Shown: positions 3,439-63,560 of the stretch, piece by piece
Layout: each line of letters opens with the position of its first letter
Numbering within the stretch: position 1 is the stretch's first letter
Assembly: GCF_036321535.1 (NCBI RefSeq)
Contig: NC_087436.1
Span: 47,494,001-47,558,000, forward strand
Reading direction: 5' to 3'
DNA from: Camelus dromedarius
Taxonomy: Eukaryota
Length of the DNA stretch: 64,000 nucleotides
Program-made: the position numbers and the translations under genes
The notes under the pieces: generated by a model
What the model was told of the DNA's origin: nothing
What the model saw: the letters and a program-made list of their open reading frames with translations, nothing else
Databases searched by the model: none

Positions 3439-3658
3439 GTATTTTTCCCACTTCTAAAAATAAGTAATTTTTGATAGCGTAGTGTTTTGCTCAATGACAA
3501 ACTTGAAATCAGGTTGATATTCCTAAGTACCACGTTTCATCCAGATTTTTTTTCTTATTAAGCTTGTCTACCATGAACAGAGGAACAAATATTTTAAAAA
3601 ATTTCACTATAACTGAGTTTTTTAAAATGTGAAATTCTCTTTTTTCTCTCCCTCTCAG

Positions 3659-3797
3659 CCATGAAGACTTTGAATTTATTTCAGGAACACGAATGCGCAA
3701 ACTTGCCCGAGAAGGCCAGAAACCTCCTGAAGGCTTCATGGCTCCCAAGGCCTGGACCGTACTGGTGGAATACTACAAATCCCTGGAGAAAGCTTAA
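3659..3797 (+). CDS. PAPSS1: Terminal coding exon of 3'-phosphoadenosine 5'-phosphosulfate synthase 1 (C-terminus of the ATP-sulfurylase domain)
   Basis: Polypyrimidine tract and AG acceptor (ttctcttttttctctccctctcag, AG at 3657-3658). After one split-codon base, 3660-3797 reads [45 protein letters not shown] (TAA 3795-3797), which I recognise as the mammalian PAPSS1 C-terminus. Confidence 0.96.
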
Positions 3798-33837: not shown

Positions 33838-34000
33838 ATACTTACCTGGCAGGGTAGATGCCTGATCACGAAGGTGGTTATCCCAGGGTGAGGCTCATCC
33901 ATTGCACTCTGGATGTGCTAACCCCTGCTATTTCCTCAAATGTGGGGAACTCTACTGCATGATTTGTGGTAGTGCGGGACTGTGTTTGAGCTTTCCCCTG
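33838..34000 (+). pseudogene. RNU1: Full-length retroposed U1 snRNA pseudogene
   Basis: 163 nt from ATACTTACCTGGCAG to CTTTCCCCTG, ~90% identical by eye to canonical U1; followed by gA8; TSD aaaaa(t)cttactgtt at 33823-33836 and ~34005-34019; no recognisable PSE or 3' box. Confidence 0.95.
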
Positions 34001-35934: not shown

Positions 35935-36052
35935 ACACGTTTTAGATTTTATTATTACTGTTATTATAAAACGCAATAAAAGAATTTTTGAACACACGTT
36001 TTAGATTTTATTATTACTGTTATTATAAAACGCAATAAAAGAATTTTTGAAC
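35935..36052. repeat. Perfect 59-bp tandem duplication
   Basis: acacgttttagattttattattactgttattataaaacgcaataaaagaatttttgaac at 35935-35993 and 35994-36052. Confidence 0.95.
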
Positions 36053-36341
36053 AAACAACCAAGCCAGAACCCAAAAGAGGTTCCAGAAAGTGAGGTTTGT
36101 GGAAACTGAAATCAACTTGGATGATGGCATTATGGAAAGTAGATATAGATTTCAATGGCTAACACTTAGGATTTTGATGTCTGCTGAGAAAGAGAAGGCT
36201 ATGTTGAAGGCCCTATGGGAATGAGAGTTAGAGTTGAGTATATTAAATATATAATAACAATCGTCAACATTTATTGAGTACCTACTAGGTACCAGGAAAA
36301 TTTTGAAACAGTATTACTGTTTGAAACTCCTAATATTTAAA

Positions 36342-38926
36342 AAATTATTTATTTATTAATTTATTATTTTATTTATTAAACTATAGTTAACTTACAATAT
36401 TGTGTTGGTTTCAGGTGTACAGCTTCAGATTCTTTTCCATTATAGAGTATTACAAGATAGTGAATATAATTCCCTGTGCTATACAGTAAATCCTTATTGC
36501 TTATCTATTTTATGTATAGTAGCTTGTATCTGACTCATATACCTATTTTTGTGCCATTGCCATGCTATTTTGATTACTGTGGCTCTGTACTTTTGTTTGA
36601 AGTCTGGGAGGCTTATGCCTCCAGCTTGTTCTTTTTTGTTTTTTTAAATATATTTTTATTGGAGTATAGTCAGTTTACAATGTTGTGTCAATTTCTGGGA
36701 TAGCACAATACATCAGTCATATAAGAACATACATATATTCTTTCTCATATTCTTTTTCACCATAAGTTACTACAAGATATTGAATATAGTTCCCTCTGCT
36801 ATAACCTCTGGCTTTGTTCTTTTTCCTCATTGTTGCTTTGGCAGTTATGGGTCTTTTATGGTTCCATATAAATTTTAGGATTATTTGTTTTAGTTCTGTG
36901 AAAAATGTTACGGGCATTTTGATAGGGACTGCATTAGATCTATAGATTGCTTTGGGTAGTATGCCCATTTTATCAATGCTAATTCTTCCACTCCAAGAGC
37001 ATGGGATATCTGTCCATTTCTTTGAATTATCGTCAGTTTCCTTTATCACTGTTTTATAGTTCTCAGCATATAAATCTTTCACCCCTTTGGTCAGGTTTAC
37101 TCCTAAGTATTTTATTTTTTTTTTGATGCAATTTTAAATAGGATTTTTAAAAAAATTTCCCTTTCTGAAAGTTAATTATTCATTTATAGAAAAGCAACAG
37201 ATTTCTGTGTATTACTCTTATATCCTGCAACTTTGCGAAATTTATTTATTAGTTCTACTAGTTTTTGTTTGGATACTTTAGGGTTCTGTATAAAATATCA
37301 TGTCATCTGCATATAGTGACAATTCTACTTCTTCCCTTCCAATTCGGATGCCCACCCCCCCCTTTTTTTTGTCAACTGCTGTGCTTAGGACTTCGAACAC
37401 AATGTTAAATAGAAGTGATGAGAATGGACATCCATGTCTTGCTCCTAAATTAGAGGATAGGCTTTCAGCTTTTCAGTGTTGAGTATGATGTTAGCTGTGG
37501 GTTTGTCATGAATGGTCTTTATTATGTTGAGATGTTTCTTCTATAACCTACTTTGGTTAGTGTTTTTATCATGAATGGATGTTGAATTTTGTTAAATGCT
37601 TTTTCTGTGTCTATTGAGGTGATCATGTGGTATTTTGATTTTGTTAATGTGGTATATCACATTGCAAATACTAAACCATTCTTGGGTCCCTGGAATAAAC
37701 CCAACTTGATCATAGTGCATGATCCTTTTTATATATTGTTCAATTCAGATTGCTAATATTTGTTGAGGATTTTTGTATCTATACTTATCAAAGATATTGG
37801 TGTGTAATTTTCTTTTTTTTTTGTGTAGTGTCTTTGGTTTTGGTATCAGGGTAATGATGGCCTCAGAGAATGAATTTGGGAGTGTTCTATCCTCTTCAAT
37901 ATTTTGGCATAGTTTGGGAAGGACAGGTGTTAGTTCTTCTGTACAGGTTTGGTAGAATTCCCCTTTGAAGCTGTCCAGTCCTGTACATTTGTTTGCTGAG
38001 AGTTTTTTCATTACTAATTCAGTTTCACTACTAGTGATTAATCTGTTCAAACTATTTGTTTCTTCTTGATATAGTCTTGGCATGTTGTATGTTTCAAAAA
38101 TTTGTCCATTTCTTCTTGGTGGCATATAACTATTCATAATATTATCTTATTTTTTTTATATCTTTGTGGTATCAGTTATTTTCTCTCCTCTTTCTTTTCT
38201 TTGTTTGGGTCCTTTCTCATTTCTTCTCAATTAGCCTGACTAAACGTTAACCGATTTTGTTTAGCTTTACAAAAAAACCAACTCTTGGTTTCATAGATCT
38301 TTTCTGTTGTTTTTTTAATCTCTCTTTATTTTTCTCTCTGGCATATATTATTTTCTTCCTTCTGCTGATTTTGGGCTTTGTTTGTTCTTCTTTTTCTAAT
38401 TTTTTTAGGTGATAAGTTAGGGTGTTTGAGATTTTTCTTATTTTTTGAAAAAGGCTTGTATTGCTATGAACTTCTCTCTAAGGACTGCTTTTGCTGCATC
38501 TCAGATTTTATATGGTTGTGTTTTCATTGTCATTTGTCTCAAAGCATTTTTTAATTTTTTGATTTCATCATTGACCCACTGGTTTTTAAGCAGCATGTTT
38601 TTTAATGTCCATGTAATTGTTTTTTTCTCATTTCTTTTTCTTGTGATTGAGTTCTAGTTTCATGCCGTTGTGGTCAGAAAAGATATTTGAAATAATTTCT
38701 GTCCTCTTAACTTTGTTGAGGCTTGTTTTGTGTCCTAGTGTGTGATCTGTCCTAGAGAATGTTCGATGTGCTCTTGAAAAAAATGTGTATTCTGTTTTTT
38801 TTTTTTTTTGATGTACTGTCTGAAAATATTAATTAAGTCTAAATATTCTATTGTGTCATTTAGATCTCTGTTGTCTTATTGATTTTTCTGTCTGGAGATC
38901 TGTCCACTGATGTCAATGGGTATTCA
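36342..38926 (-). mobile_element. L1 on minus strand: ~190-nt 3' end joined directly to ~2.2 kb of ORF2 (late endonuclease through RT region)
   Basis: Degenerate T-rich tail and 3' UTR at 36345-36532; ORF2 from ~36540 (ORFs [11 protein letters not shown]...IPCSW, LNRLITSSETE...GEFYQT); 5' end at 38926 in the endonuclease region. Confidence 0.9.
36637..36804 (-). mobile_element. Short L1 3'-end insertion nested in L1 ORF2
   Basis: T tail then ttttattggagtatagtcagtttacaatgttgtgtc...gatattgaatatagttccctctgctata; duplicated host sequence cctccagcttgttcttttt (36618-36636) and cctctggctttgttcttttt (36805-36824). Confidence 0.85.
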
Positions 38927-39195
38927 TCCATGTCTCTTTAATTTTTCATTTGTATTTGCATAAGTGTTATATCATTTAAAAATGTTTATTTTCTATCTCT
39001 TTTTTCTCTGTGTAATATTCTCAGATAAATCTTGCAATTCATTCATTCTACTTTCAATTGTATTTAGTCTAATATTTAGCTCTCTCATGGAGATTTCTTT
39101 CCCAAATTATTCTTTCATAACTCCTGGATTTCTAAGATAATAACAATATGTACTTCATACTTCATAGGTATGTACTTTAAAGTATTTAGAGTTTT
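38927..39195 (-). mobile_element. Ancient L1M ORF1-like host segment, inverted relative to its continuation at 40716
   Basis: Reverse complement (gagctaaatattagactaaatacaattgaaag...gaattgcaagatttatctgagaatattacacag...ttaaagagacatgga) resembles old L1 ORF1 and joins 40716 agagacatggaaggtagagcccaatatatg. Confidence 0.6.
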
Positions 39196-40715
39196 ACAGA
39201 CATATAGATCAATAGAACAGAATAGAGAGACCAGAAATAAACCCACACACCTGCAGTAAATTAATCTTCAAAAAAGGAGGCAGGAATATACAATGGAGAA
39301 AAGACAGTCTTCAGCAATGGTGTTGGGAAAGTTGAACAGCCGCATGTAAATCAATGATGTTAGAACACTCCCTCACTCTATATAAAATGTAAACTCAAAA
39401 TGGCTTATAGACTTAAAAATAAGACAAGTCACCATGAAACTCCTAGGAGAGAATATAGGCAAAACATTCTCTGACATAAGTTGTATTAATGTCTTCCTAG
39501 GTCACTCTTCCAAGACAATAGAAATAAAAACAAAAATAAACAAATGGGACCTAATCAAACTTATAAGTTTTTGCATAGCAAAGGAAACCATAAACAAAAC
39601 AAAAAGACAACTTACAGACTGGGAGAAAATATTTGGAAATGATGGGACTGACAAGGGATTAATTTCCAGAATATACAAACAGCTCATACAACTCAATATC
39701 AAAAAAAAAAAAAACCCCAAACCAAAAACAAACAACTCAATCAAGAAAAGGGAAGAAGACCTAAATAGACATTTTTCCGATGAAGACTTATAGGTGCCCA
39801 TCAGGCACATGAAAAGATGCTCAACATTGCTAATTATTAGAGAAATGGAAATCAAAACTGCTATGAGATATCACCTCACACCAGTCAGAATGGCCATCAT
39901 TAGAAAGGCTACAAATAGCAAATGCTGGAGAGAGTGTGGAGAAAAGGGAACCCTCTTAACACTTGGTAAGAATGTAAATTGGTGCAGTAAATTGGTGCAG
40001 TTGTTCCAACCCAACACCAATGGAAAATAGTATGGAGATTACTTAAAAAACTAAAAATACAGTTACCATATGATCCAGCACTCCCACTTCTGGGCATATA
40101 TCCAGAAAAGATGAAACCTCTAGTTCAAAAAGATAAATACACCCCAGTGTCCATAGCAGCACTATTAGCAATAGCCAAGAATGGAAGCAACCTAAATGTC
40201 CATCAATAGGTGACTGGATAAAGATGTTGTATGTATACATATACATGCAATGAAATATTACTTAACCATCAAAAAGAATGAAATGTTGCTGTTTGTAGCA
40301 ACATGGATGGACATAGAGATTATAATACTAAGTGAAGTAAGTCAGAAAGATAAAGACAAATATCATATGATTCACTTACATATGGGATCTAAAAATGATA
40401 TAAATGAACTTATTTATAAAACAGAAACAGACTCACAGACATAGAAAGCAAACTTATGGTTACTAAAGGGGAAGGAGGAGGGATAAATTAAGAGTTTGGG
40501 ACTAGCAAATACAAACTACTATATGTAAAATAGATAAACAGTAATATCTTACTGTATAGTGCAAGGAACCATATTCAGTATCCTTCAATAAACCATAATG
40601 GAAAAGAAGATGAAAAAGAATATGTAGTATGTATAGTTGAATCCCTTTGCTGTACACCAGAAACTAACACAATATTGTAAATCAACTATACTTCAATTAA
40701 ATATTAAAAAGAGAG
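39196..40715 (+). mobile_element. L1 ORF2 3' part, 3' UTR and A-rich tail
   Basis: ORFs 39434-39793 ([14 protein letters not shown]), 39794-40030 ([14 protein letters not shown]...[12 protein letters not shown]) and 40250-40444; 3' UTR ends tgtaaatcaactatacttcaattaaatattaaaaa. Confidence 0.93.
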
Positions 40716-41479
40716 AGAGACATGGAAGGTAGAGCCCAATATATGTATAATATGGGTTCTGAAAGGAGGGAAGAGAGAAATAAAAGGGAGGAAATATTTA
40801 AAGGGATAAGAGAGAGTTTTGGTTGGCTCTCAGATGATGATGACCACCAAAATCCAGACCTGTCCACAAACTGTCCCCTAAAACTGTAAAATAAAAATGG
40901 AACACAATGGAACCATAAATGACCCATGCCACTAGTATTTCTGGGAGACAGAGAGTATCACAAACTTCAAAATACCTTATAAGTAGAGTAATAACTACCA
41001 ATTCAAGGAGAGCTACCACTGCCTTGGCTAGTCTGTAGGTACCCAGGGTGGGACACAGGACACAGGAGTGTGGTGGCCATAGATGTAGTATAGGTTAAAA
41101 AAAATTTCCATCAATGAGTCTGATAATGAGGGTTACAATGTTGAACTAAGTTCTAAGACTCAGTTTATAGCAGCAGACGTAAAGAGGGGGCTTGAATGTG
41201 AATGAAACTGGAGGTAACAGCCTTATAGAAACATTGCTTTTGGATAAAAAGAGGTAAATAGAGAAAATGTGGCTTCCCCTGAAGGGATAGCAGAGAAAGA
41301 AAAGGAAGTAAGAGGGAAGAATTAAGAATCACACAGAAATTAAAAGAAAAAGAAAATACACCAACTCCTTTCTTTCAGCCTAGCAGTCTTGTTATACACT
41401 GAAGTAACTGCACTTCATTCTACTGAAAGAGGAAGGTGATCTTGAACAGGTTAATCATAATGCCTAACACAGAAAAAAT

Positions 41480-44400: not shown

Positions 44401-45935
44401 GGATCAGAGATATAAATGTAAAAAATGAAACCAGAAGAAAACGGTGAATTCCTCTATAACCCATACATAGGGGGGAATTTCCTAAATATGTCTTAAAATC
44501 CTTATGCAATTAAATTGATTAATTTTACAAAATTATAAGAAACATTTTTCATGGAATGAAAGCACCATTAATAAAATCAAACGATAAGTGACAACTTGTG
44601 AAAAAAAAATCTGCAATATCTATCACAGATAAACTGTTGCCACCACTAATACATTTAAAAATAACAGTTGAGGGAAAAAGACAAGATATTCAATTGAAAA
44701 ATGAGCAAGAGACATGACCTGACAATGCACAAAAATGGTATAAGATGGCTCTTAAACATATGAAACTATATTCAACTTTGCTCATAATAAGAGAAATGCA
44801 AATCAAAAGTGTGCTCAGATAAATTTCTCACCGAGTAGGTTGACAAAAATTTAAAAGCTTAACAACATACTCTGTTAGCCAGACTGTGAAGATAACAGCC
44901 ACTTTCATTTATTGCAGATGAGAATGCAAAAACAGTACATTTTTTATGGAGAAGAATTTGCCAATATATAACAAAACTGCATATGCATTTCCTCTTCGAC
45001 TAGCAACCCCACTTCTAGGAATTTATCTTAAAGATATACCTCCCAAAATTGAAAATCTATTATGCATTAAAGCATAATTTTGCCCATACATTAGAGACTG
45101 GATGAATAAATTTGGTATATTTATACAATAGAGTACATATAGCTATAAGAAAAGATAAAGAGCAAACCTGTTAACTCATATAGTATACTTTTTAGGATAT
45201 ATTGTTAAATGAAAAAAATCAAAGCACAAAAAGCATGTGTGTATATATATATGTATATATACATACATATATATAAAATCTTTTGTGTAAGAGAAAAGGG
45301 AAATAAGAAAAAAATACATGCTTGTGTACGCAAAAAGAAATACAGAAGAGATAAGGCAGAAACTAATAAATTGCTTGCATATTGAGTGTGAGGAGTGTCA
45401 TAAATAATAGACCAACAAGGCAAAATTTAACAGGTATTTAGAAAATTTTAATGATGTACTTAAGTTGATTTAGATATGACTGAGCTTAAAGATTAGATAA
45501 CACATACTTTTTTCCAAGAATGACTTAGAACATTAATAACAATTGCCCAATTCGTAAAGATCATATTCCCTGTCCAAAATACCCATAGATTAAAAATCAA
45601 CAATAAAAAAATTTAAAAACTATTCTTATGTATTTGGAACTTAGGAAATGTAATTCTAAGTAAACTAAGCATTAAAAAGAAAAAGTAAATTGTAATTTTG
45701 AAATATATGACAATAAAACTAATGCATATGAAAATTACTGAGATGCAGCTATAGCAGGACTCAGAGGAAGATTTATAGCCTAATATGTCTTTCCTAAAAA
45801 TTAGCATAAAATATTAAGATTTAACACATAAAGCTAGGAAAATAACATGGAAGAAATACAAAAATAATAGAAGAAAGGAAATAACAAATATGACATTAAA
45901 AGCAAGCAAACAAACAAAAACCAACAGAGATGATT
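41480..45935 (+). mobile_element. Long, highly decayed old L1 (L1MC/L1ME-like) fragments
   Basis: A-rich with ORF2 landmarks (attgatgcaaaaatccttaataaatcattagcaaat; ataagagaaatgcaaatcaaaa; ctagcaaccccacttctaggaatttatc); interrupted by an MLT1 LTR. Confidence 0.8.
42282..42757 (-). mobile_element. MaLR solo LTR (MLT1B/C/D-like) nested in old L1
   Basis: taacaaattactgaaaacttggtggttgaaaataacagaaatttattctct...tatatctgcaaagaccctgttt...caactcaatccactaCA; TSD agtac/agtgc (42277-42281, 42758-42762). Confidence 0.85.
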
Positions 45936-45939
45936 ATCA

Positions 45940-46121
45940 AAACAGGATTATACTCTATAGCACAGGGAAATATATACAAGATCTTGTGGTAGCTCACAGT
46001 GAAAAAGAATGTGACAATGAATATATGTATGTTCATGTATAACTGAAAAATTGTGCTCTATGCTGGAAATTGACACAACATTGTAAACTGTCTATAACTC
46101 AATAAAAAAAATGTAAAAAAA
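45940..46121 (+). mobile_element. Short young camelid-type L1 3' end
   Basis: tatactctatagcacagggaaatatatacaagatcttgtggtagctcacagtgaaaaagaatgtgacaatg...gacacaacattgtaaactgtctataactcaataaaaaaaatgtaaaaaa. Confidence 0.85.
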
Positions 46122-47502
46122 CCTCTGAAATCTGACTGTTTGAAGGCTTTAATAACATAATAACTTTCGTAACACAGACAGGTTCCTGGAAAGACTGACC
46201 ATGAAAAATAAGCAGAAGGAATAAATCAGTAGTATAAGAACACCACCCCAAGAGGGCTCCAACTGCCATGCGGGAAGGAATGATGATGTGGTTATGGAGC
46301 AGAGGTCATGTTTAGTATTCACTCAAATGCAGCCCAGATGCTGACTCTGCTTTCATAGTGGGTCCTGCATTTCTGTCTCTGGGTCTTTTAGGTCCAGCCT
46401 CTTAGTCTGATCACTCTCCTCACTATTTACATATCTTCCATTTCCTTACTCAGAGCTGTAGAAACCCACAGATTCAAACTCCAACCCTCAACCCATTTTT
46501 CTTTTCTCTGGATTCTCCTGCATTCATTGTTTTTGAAACACAAAGCCAAGTAGATCCTCCGTTTGAATCCCTTCTACTCTGTTTTTTCCCTTTCCTCTGC
46601 AACAAACACAGGAAAGCATTGTTCTAAAATGTGCTTTGGGAGGGAAAAAAGTAAATCTCTAAGAAAAATATTAGTTAAGATCTAAAAATATTATTTACCA
46701 CATATGTTTTGTACATGTGGATAACTGACTAATGATAATGCAATAGTTACCTTAGGTGCTGAAGCTCAGCCGGGGGCAGAAGGCAAATATTATTTATCTT
46801 ATTAATTATTTATCTGAAACTCCTATTTCAGAATAATTTTTTTTAATAATTACGCATTTGGGTTGTTAGCTTAAGCTGGAATACAGTAAGGGATTATATT
46901 AGGCCCCTGGCAGAAATGATAAGTGCAGATACCTAAAGGTGATGTTCACATTCTTAACATGTAGATATTAACATATAGGTAAGTTAGCAAGCCAGCTAGA
47001 GTAAAGTTAGCTTGTTTTTCTCTATCTGGTGACTTTTTCTTTCCAATATTTCAACTTGGTAAACTTTCAATGTGTCTCATTAGACACTTTTGCCTGTAGT
47101 TCTTTAAAACCATGTGTGACTTAATCCATATGCTTTTCATTCATTTACAATCAAGTCATCAAAATACAGCCTTTAAAGAGCTATTTGATTTCAAAGAACA
47201 TTTTTAATAAGCATTTAAAGCCCTTTGAGAATAAAAGCGGGATGCCACATTTTTCCAAGAGTAAACACAGCACAACCAAAAACATACTCAAGCCACAGAA
47301 ATCCAAGCTTCTGAATTTTAATTCATTTCCATTCTTGACTAAATGAGTCATCTCCTATCTCCCTTTAACTCCTGGTGAAGCATGAAGTGTTTTGAGATGA
47401 GGAGGTAGTATTTTTCAAATTACTATTTTAAAACTATTTAGCTACTATTTGTGCAGATTCTGTTAAGAACTTCTGCTTCAGTTTGCCTCAGTTGTTCTAG
47501 AG

Positions 47503-60796: not shown

Positions 60797-62725
60797 ATCT
60801 GTGTATGTGTGTATGTGTATATTAAACCTTCTTTATTCATCATCTATTGATGGGCACTTGGATTGCTTCCATATCCTGCTATTGCAGATAATGCTGTACT
60901 GAACATTGGAGTGCAGGTATCTTTTCAAATTAGTGGGTTTTTTTTCTTTAGATATACACGCTGGAGTGGAATTGCTGGATCATAAGGTAGTTCTGCTTTT
61001 GTTTTTTTGAGGAACTTCCATACTGTTTTCCATAGTGGCTGCACCAATTTACATTCCTACTAATAGTGTACCAGTGTTCACTTTTTTCCACATCCTTGCC
61101 AACATTTGTTATTTATGTCTTTTTTGATGATAGCCATTCTGACAGATGTGAGTTGATATCTCACTGCAGTTTTGATTTGCGTTTATTTCTCTGATTAATG
61201 ATGTTGAGCATCTTTTCATATGCCTGTTGGCTATCTTTGGAAAAATGTCCAGTTAGATCTTCTGCCCATTTTTTAATCAGGTTGTTTGTTTTTGATATTG
61301 AGTTGTATGAATTGTTTATATTTATGGGTATTAATCCTTTATCAGTAATATTATTTAAACTTTTTCTCCCATTCAGTAGGTTGTCTTTTCATTTTGTCAA
61401 TGGTTTCTTTTGCTGTGCAAAAGCTTTTAAGTTTAATTAGGTCCCAGTTGTTTATTTTTGCTTTTGTTTTCTTTGCCTTGGGAGACAGATACAAAAAATA
61501 TTGCTATGATTTATGTCAGAGTGTTCTGCATATATTATCTTCTAGGAGTTTTATGTTTTCCAGTCTTACACTTGGGTCTTAGACCATTTTGAATTTATTT
61601 TTGTGTATGATGTGAGAAAATGTTCTAATTTTGTTCTTTTACATGTAGCTGTCCAGTTTTTCAGTACCGTTTACAAAAGAGATTATATTTATTTCATTGT
61701 GTATTCATGCCTCTTTTGTTATGGGTTAGTTGACCATAAGTGCATAGGTTTATTTCTGGGCTCTCTATTCTGTTCCATTGATCTATGTGTCTGTTTTTGT
61801 GCCAGTATCATGATGCTATTTTGATTACTACAGTTTTGTAGTCTGAAGTATGATGATGCATGGTACCTCCAGTTTTTTTTTTTCCCCTCAAGATTACTTT
61901 GGCTATTCAGGGTCTTTGGTGGTTCATATAAATTTTAGGATTATTTGTTCTATTTCTGTGAAAAATCTCATGGGTATTTTGGTAGGGATTGCATTAAATC
62001 TGTAGATTGCTTTGGGTAGTACGGGCACTTTAACAATATTAATTTTTCCAGTCCATGAACATGGACTATCTTTGCATTTCTTTGTATCATCTTCTATTAC
62101 CTTCATCAGTGTTTTATAGTTAGGTCTTTTACCTCCTTGGTTAAATTTATTCCTAAGTGTTTTATTCTTTTTGATGCAATTTTAAATGGGATTGTTTCCT
62201 GATAGTTCATTATTAGTTTATAGAAAAGTAACAGATTTCTGTATATTAATCTTGAATCCTGCTACTTAACTGAATTATTAGTTCTAATAGTTTTTTTTTT
62301 TTTTTTTTGGCGGCTATAAGGTTTTCTATATATAGTATCCTGCCATCTGCAAATAGTGAGAAGTTTACTTCTTCTCTTCCAATTGGATGCTTTTTATTTA
62401 TTTTTCTTCTCTGATTACTGTAGCTAGGACTTTAAATACTATGTTAAAGAGAAGTAATGAGAATGGGCATCCTTACCTTTTCTTGAATTTAGAGAAAAGG
62501 CTTTCAGCTTTTCATGGTTGAATATGATGTTAACTGTGAGTTTGTCATAAGTAGCCTTTTCTTACGTTGAGATATGTTCCCTCTCTACACTCTATATCCA
62601 CTTTGATGAGAGTTTTTATCATGAATGAATATTCTGCTAAGTTCTTTTTTTCTGCATCTGTTGAGAGGATCATGTGATTTTTATCCTTTCTTTTGTTAAT
62701 GTGATGTATCACATTGATTGATTTG
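60345..62725 (-). mobile_element. Younger 5'-truncated L1 (3' UTR plus ORF2 to the RT region) nested in the older L1; TG-rich microsatellite ~60750-60818
   Basis: ORFs 61924-62106 ([24 protein letters not shown]) and 62545-62748 (SINVIHHINKRKDKNHMILS.DAEK) are ORF2 RT-region motifs. Confidence 0.92.
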
Positions 62726-63089
62726 TATACCACATTTTCTTTATTCATTTGTCAATAAACATTAGGTTGCTTCCAGTTTGGCTTTTGTAAATAATGCTAT
62801 AGTGAACATGGGTGTGCAAATATCTCTTTGAGACTAGATAGCATTTTATACTTACTAAACAGTGAGCCATCTAAGCACATAACTGACAAATCTCCCCTAA
62901 GCTGGACTCAAAATAATTTGAATTCAAATTGACATGCAAATGAAAATCAATATGGTGCCATTTGTCAATTTAGAAGACATATGAGGAAGTTCATTCAGAA
63001 TTTGTTTTTTTTCCTCCATTTTTCCCTAAGATCTGCTTGTGAATTTTCTTTTTCTTTCTGTAAATTGTTATGTTTCATTCATTCAGAAA

Positions 63090-63560
63090 TTTTTTTTTTT
63101 TTGCACAAATCCACAAAATTAGAAATAAGAGGGAGAATACTGTAGAGGAAATTAAAATAATTTTAAGAGAATAACTTATTTGAAACCTCTTCAAATATAT
63201 TTGTAAATGTGAAAGAAATGAATGTTTCCAGGAAAATAAAAATTACCAATCTTGTTCAGAAAGAGATAGAACAGTTAAATAGACCATTATCAAGGAATAT
63301 ATTGATAAAATTTCAAAAATCAACTTCCCCTAGTGCAGATGGTTTCATAGGTTCATGTTAACATACTCTCAAAGAAATTACAATTGCAAGTCTATTGAGA
63401 TTACTGTGAGTCCAGAGACAGTAGGTATGTTTCTAATTTTTTTTAAGAAATCTATTATAACAGTGCTACCAAAATTATACAAAGATATCACATAAAAGGA
63501 AACCATAGATTAGTCTCCATTATGAATATCTATAACAGTTTATTAGATAAAATATTAGTG
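63090..63560 (+). mobile_element. Decayed old L1M ORF2 fragment
   Basis: gaacagttaaatagaccatt...cagatggtttcatagg...aaaggaaaccatagattagtctccattatgaatat. Confidence 0.65.

Follow-up and report, generated by a model that had tools for sequence, protein, structure and literature searches.

How did two LINE-1 (L1) retrotransposons of opposite orientation, at positions 36324-40726 of a 64-kb stretch of the dromedary genome (Camelus dromedarius, contig NC_087436.1, positions 47,494,001-47,558,000), come to carry target-site duplications (TSDs) that pair across the two elements instead of flanking each of them? A sequence-only reading of this stretch (hereafter the window, to which all window figures refer) had proposed that two separate L1 cDNAs, primed concurrently at sites about 270 bp apart, swapped their 5' junctions and flipped the DNA between them. 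The present analysis, for which the sequence evidence comes from one genome, indicates that the rearrangement is real and old, and that it is best described as one L1 split by an inversion linked to a second L1. Judged from the sequence, an old L1 copy is cut in two by an inversion of ~2.5 kb, the far end of which lies at a second, short L1 on the opposite strand. Most likely, the locus preserves the trace of an insertion accident of a known type, and not that of two insertions at the same time. Crossed duplications alone cannot separate concurrent insertion from later rearrangement, but the L1 coordinates of the pieces can.

A long L1 split by an inversion

The left element had been taken for a single L1. 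It is discontinuous, however, with a jump at ~36524-36541 from the 3' untranslated region (3' UTR) to residue ~900 of open reading frame 2 (ORF2), the position at which the right L1 starts. It consists of two pieces, a ~190-bp L1 3' end and a 2.2-kb ORF2 piece. The former (U) comprises a decayed tail recognizable in the sequence (36342-36371, minus strand) and ~160 bp of 3' UTR (36372-36530, minus strand); the latter (B; 36530-38926, minus strand) extends from the endonuclease region to ORF2 residue ~900 and measures 2,227 bp without a nested insert. The junction between U and B (36524-36541), which is the left inversion junction, is non-homologous and its position is ambiguous over ~17 nt. 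The right L1 (C; 39196-40715, plus strand) runs from ORF2 residue ~897 to the end of the frame and through the 3' UTR to the tail, and amounts to ~1,510 bp plus an AG-rich tail end. Two minor features were noted within these pieces. The insert nested in B is an L1 3' end (36637-36806, minus strand) that lies ~100 bp from the left junction, has its own imperfect flanking duplication of 18-19 nt and is similar to 45858-46122, while C contains a perfect 13-bp tandem duplication at 39974-40001.

In L1 coordinates, B and C are complementary. B ends at human ORF2p residue ~900, where C starts, and residues 1-666 of the ORF2 protein P0005 are covered by B and residues 662-1041 by C. On a third L1 copy in the window, the end of B maps to 24126 and the start of C to 24111, and when B and C are joined in a script the alignment to this copy runs through the split and 240 of its 282 columns match. 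The two pieces overlap by 0-19 nt, a range set by the ambiguity of the junction. Flipping 36530-39195 in silico restores an ordinary L1 of 3.7 kb (2,227 + 1,510 bp) between direct copies of one target site (site B) and, at the same time, a short minus-strand L1 between direct copies of the other (site A). We therefore read B and C, on the strength of these alignments, as two halves of one L1, the 5' end of which is joined in cis to its own duplication. The inverted unit of 36530-39195 measures 2.67 kb (~2.5 kb without the nested insert) and cuts through the long L1; the 270 bp originally proposed is too small.

This anatomy bears directly on the proposal that U and B belong to a single left L1 that later suffered an internal deletion, C being a separate right L1 and the two having swapped 5' junctions. 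Such a history explains the crossed duplications, yet the left L1 must lose 1.3 kb in an extra deletion and resume within 0-19 nt of the 5' end of the right L1 by chance, for which our own estimate is ~1% or less. With the shared B/C breakpoint left to coincidence, we regard this history as highly improbable. The association of the inversion with L1 target sites is supported; the exchange between two separate cDNAs with a flip of only 270 bp is not.

An assembly artefact would account for the arrangement without any biological event, and appears extremely improbable: the junctions lie outside any long identical repeat, the duplicated copies of site A have diverged from each other, and 0.74-0.80 of the words of the stretch are found in 20 of 24 runs among those listed (ten studies, two organism labels), a measure of presence and not of junction order.

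Crossed target-site duplications

The site B duplication, AGAGACATGGA, follows C at 40716-40726 (plus strand), and its exact 11-nt reverse complement lies at 38927-38937 (minus strand), joined to the 5' end of B in a TT/AAAG context, as had been noted. Each strand of the window contains this 11-mer once, and the chance of such a pair is ~8e-5 when 20 x 20 = 400 register pairs are allowed for. The site A pairing also held, at lower stringency: 36324-36341 and the reverse complement of 39176-39195 are identical in 16 of 19 columns, a score equalled by 57 of 42,482 control 30-mers and, within the AT-rich subset, by 49 of 10,428. On the left, site A spans 36317-36341 (core 36324-36338); the second copy is inverted (39176-39199, minus strand), shows an endonuclease-like TTT/AAAG and ends in ACAG (39196-39199), which it has in common with C and which marks the right inversion junction. 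A 12-bp perfect palindrome at 39173-39184 overlaps this second copy.

On its outer side, the left copy of site A is bordered by 6 nt identical to the L1 sequence at the split point, and four of them (ACAG) persist at the junction between the enclosed host segment and C; the microhomology comprises 4 nt as observed, and 6 nt as deduced from the left copy together with reference copies. An endonuclease-like motif is also present at the split point and was left uncounted because such a motif is expected within 6 nt 8-10% of the time.

The crossed duplications had been taken to indicate concurrency. They cannot do so, because recombination between inverted L1s gives them too: in the literature, they are described as the signature of recombination after integration (Lee et al., 2008; PMC2603318).

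The enclosed host segment

Between the two duplications lies a segment of older host DNA (38938-39175, minus strand) that was carried inside the inversion. On the plus strand it is rich in T (A 66, T 112), while beyond 40726 A prevails (skew +0.29). Such opposite skews are what an inversion of the enclosed DNA relative to the downstream flank predicts. The same segment had also been said to resemble old L1 ORF1, and no tool confirmed this: Pfam gave only weak coiled-coil-type matches, all below the cut-off, searches of the PDB and the ESM Atlas were without match, a phmmer scan of 1.84 billion proteins returned 0 matches, and when it was aligned with a different old L1 piece of the window, 164 of 500 shuffles reached the same score. 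The label is not needed, since B and C reconstruct one L1 on flipping and the segment must therefore be inverted.

Source lineages and ages of the pieces

The two L1 tails differ in type. Relative to C, U lacks 34 bp of the 3' UTR (at 36423/36424), and of the ten aligned L1 3' ends that cover this position (11 rows, one of which stops short) only U and one external locus, L002, carry the deletion. As C retains the 34 bp, the two tails come from different source lineages. For the same reason, the possibility that one RNA was primed twice was rejected, the two 3' ends differing by an indel that U has in common with L002.

L002 (3529-3708, corresponding to window 36313-36509) also repeats the ~25 nt that follow the tail, namely the site A sequence, and none of 42,559 control windows scores equally. 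Together with L003 and L007 it represents one host locus, which we take to be pig-like; none of its flank aligns to the window, and it was rejected as an orthologue; no orthologue of the region turned up in the searches made. The sharing of both the deletion and the post-tail sequence suggests either that the window site was the donor or that an old L1 lineage had acquired a fixed 3' extension. Because the left copy of site A is common to this non-orthologous locus, it may have travelled with the element, in which case it would not consist of host target DNA alone. On the other hand, the second copy of site A resembles both the left copy and L002, with a summed score reached by only 15 of 63,724 control windows, and from sequence similarity the two copies in the window are probably true relatives.

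These observations bear in opposite directions on a further explanation, in which an unrelated later inversion with a deletion broke inside both L1s, site A was the 3' extension of the short L1 itself, and its second copy arose by chance or as a templated insert. The non-orthologous L002, with the same deletion and the same post-tail sequence, speaks in favour of it. Against it, the second site A copy is similar to both A and L002 at the level just given and runs on into window-specific flank. We consider this explanation very unlikely.

Exact patterns for further copies of the 34-bp-deletion type gave 0 matches in metagenomes, viral contigs and genome contigs, and none was found in the literature searched; a looser pattern recovered eight loci, including the single locus represented by L002, L003 and L007, and L004, which is without L1 context. 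An ORF2 search of viral contigs gave no match and that of genome contigs a single L1 piece, L009:1-1389; this 1.4-kb contig, filed with a bacterial genome, consists of mammalian L1 ORF2 and 3' UTR (74% to P0005) and is contamination.

Divergence does not order the insertions. Measured against the reference copy, Kimura two-parameter (K2P) distances come to 0.16-0.22 for B, 0.13-0.27 for C and 0.20 for U, and range from 0.13 to 0.30 among all pieces. Along C, private changes rise from 16 in 459 to 35 in 583 sites, with an equal rise in the reference copy (18, 34), so that this low-power test detected no switch of lineage within C.

Mechanism of the rearrangement

The weights given here to the competing mechanisms are our own inference and were not computed. 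The explanation that we favour, tentatively and at somewhat less than even confidence, is that the long L1 came first and that the later arrival of the short L1 was accompanied by fold-back of the free target end into it. In this scheme, a 5'-truncated L1 of ~3.7 kb (B + C) would have inserted normally on the plus strand at site B. Later, priming of a second L1 from another source lineage would have taken place at site A, at a distance of 270 bp and on the other strand, with only ~190 nt copied. The other target end would have been resected and its 3' tip, containing the copy of site A, would have folded back and annealed within the long L1 at ORF2 residue ~897, through a microhomology of 4-6 nt; there the loop would have been cut and joined to the short cDNA. 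The outcome would be a flip of the host segment together with B (~2.5 kb), a split long L1 and crossing of both duplications. The split, its shared breakpoint, the inverted duplications, the microhomology and the different 3' UTR types can be read from the sequence. We infer the order of events and the fold-back step, and favour the latter because it explains together the breakpoint at the 5' junction of the short L1, the clean cut of the long L1 and the microhomology; it requires no extra coincidence, the position of the breakpoint being built into it.

Several points weigh against this explanation. No allele with an intact long L1 was seen in the one genome that provides the sequence, and the ages of the pieces overlap, as the K2P ranges given above show. 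Site B, the older of the two under this model, is nevertheless the less decayed. If a 16-nt duplication is assumed at the U/B junction, no more than 10 of the 16 positions match C, and the same 16 nt agree with the copy at 24 kb at two sites where C differs, a weak hint in the sequence that B and the start of C may come from different copies. Finally, a plain duplication of host DNA leaves the match of L002 to site A unexplained.

The two overlap sites at which B and C differ also favour sequential insertions followed by retrotransposon recombination-mediated inversion (RRMI) between the inverted pair and loss of one arm. In this variant the left L1 would originally have measured 1.5 kb, its 5' end coinciding with the shared point, a crossover within C would have flipped the host segment and B, and 1.3 kb would have been lost up to the edge of homology. 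Neighbouring L1s are common in the window, crossed TSDs are the defining signature of RRMI, and 12 of 49 RRMI loci also have deletions (PMC2603318). The deletion, however, would have to end within 0-19 nt of the homology edge, and no lineage switch was detected along C in the low-power test described above. We consider this route unlikely.

To the same degree unlikely, in our view, is a concurrent insertion with a split element, in which both sites were cut together, the RNA or cDNA of the long L1 was shared between the junctions and the 270-bp piece was flipped; either the end of the short cDNA would prime on the long RNA just past C, or the site A end would prime second-strand synthesis in the long cDNA. 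The indistinguishable ages of the pieces are in its favour. It needs, however, two ribonucleoproteins of different source lineages within 270 bp at once, published cases lie between chromosomes or megabases apart in the sources compared, and the internal end of B abuts the short L1 and not a target site, which makes standard twin priming unfit. In its most specific form, to which we likewise give a low probability, the locus would be a germ-line fossil of synchronous retrotransposition: priming of two L1 RNAs from different lineages at sites 270 bp from each other would have been accompanied by a jump of the short cDNA's end to the long RNA, just beyond the first cDNA, and by a flip of the host piece. 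Were this so, the geometry would be one that is not among the tumour cases described in the literature compared.

Genomic context

The rearranged site lies ~32 kb past the last ATP-sulfurylase-coding exon in the window (3633-3794), which by its sequence matches the end of the ATP-sulfurylase domain and would fit the final exon of a plus-strand PAPSS gene. No functional effect of the rearrangement is evident. Elsewhere in the window, a perfect 59-bp tandem duplication at 35935-36053 reflects either a recent event or an assembly slip, a full-length U1 snRNA match (33838-34000, 117 bits) followed by an A run is likely to be a retrocopy, and another L1 with opposed ORF2 pieces at 61909-63557 (62730-61909, minus strand; 63194-63557, plus strand) is possibly an ordinary 5' inversion.

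Comparison with known systems

Twin or dual priming (PMC2837659) resembles the present case in that an inverted 5' piece abuts a non-inverted piece in L1 coordinates, with a T tract at the left end; unlike in that system, host DNA lies between the halves, and there are two target sites and two types of 3' end. The split piece is not primed from a target end, its internal end being joined to the short L1 and its 5' end to site B, and standard twin priming was rejected on this geometry.

As in RRMI (PMC2603318), an inverted L1 pair occupies both breakpoints and the TSDs no longer match in cis. Two complete chimeras in register are not found here, the left element jumping from the 3' UTR to ORF2 residue ~900; in contrast to the published loci as described in that source, the left junction is out of homologous register and an extra arm deletion at the homology edge is required.

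Synchronous L1 insertions are reported to leave crossed duplications as reciprocal inversions or translocations with target-site heteroduplication (Zumalave et al., 10.1101/2024.08.27.596794). The two tails, the crossed duplications and the placement of the halves of one L1 on different bridges are all features in common with such inversions; a separate tail and a crossed duplication are present on either bridge, with the reservation that L002 also carries the left copy of site A. The differences from the cases in that preprint, as far as its content was compared, are that the sites lie only 270 bp apart and that the split piece is joined to the cDNA end of the other L1, and concurrency at the present locus is not demonstrable from one genome. 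L1 intermediates can also join distant breaks (PMC13526784).

The closest likeness is to L1 insertions with an inversion at the reciprocal end, in which, during a single insertion, the free target end is resected and folds back through microhomology, so that neighbouring DNA is inverted (Mendez-Dorantes et al., 10.1101/2024.12.14.628481; earlier version PMC11702581). That work describes a 917-bp inversion in a cell clone and four tumour cases, in which the TSD-like overlaps measure 4-15 bp and the inversion junction shows homology, and inversion sizes that include 917 bp and 3,275 bp; at 2.67 kb, the inversion of 36530-39195 falls within their resection range. As in these cases, a polyadenylated L1 piece lies at one breakpoint, here a tailed cDNA (tail 36342-36371) at an endonuclease-like TTT/AAAG, the inversion is of kilobase scale and the far junction shows microhomology. 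A TSD-like copy also lies on the other strand here (16 of 19 columns), but its left partner is common to the non-orthologous L002 and may be element-borne. Unlike in the published cases, the rearrangement is old and fixed in the germ line, its far breakpoint falls in a neighbouring L1, so that a second TSD is crossed, and there is no clear deletion at the far junction. The literature searched, which left most subscription papers outside, contained no fixed ancient germ-line example of a local inversion during L1 insertion, and further inversions are illustrated in the two preprints (Fig. S9 and Supplementary Fig. 9), among which there may be a closer match. By analogy, the locus appears to behave like this known class of insertion-associated inversion, three features of which are found here. 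Local inversions during L1 insertion have been published from cell clones and tumours; if the parallel is correct, the present locus would be a fixed, ancient germ-line case that could be dated by its orthologues.

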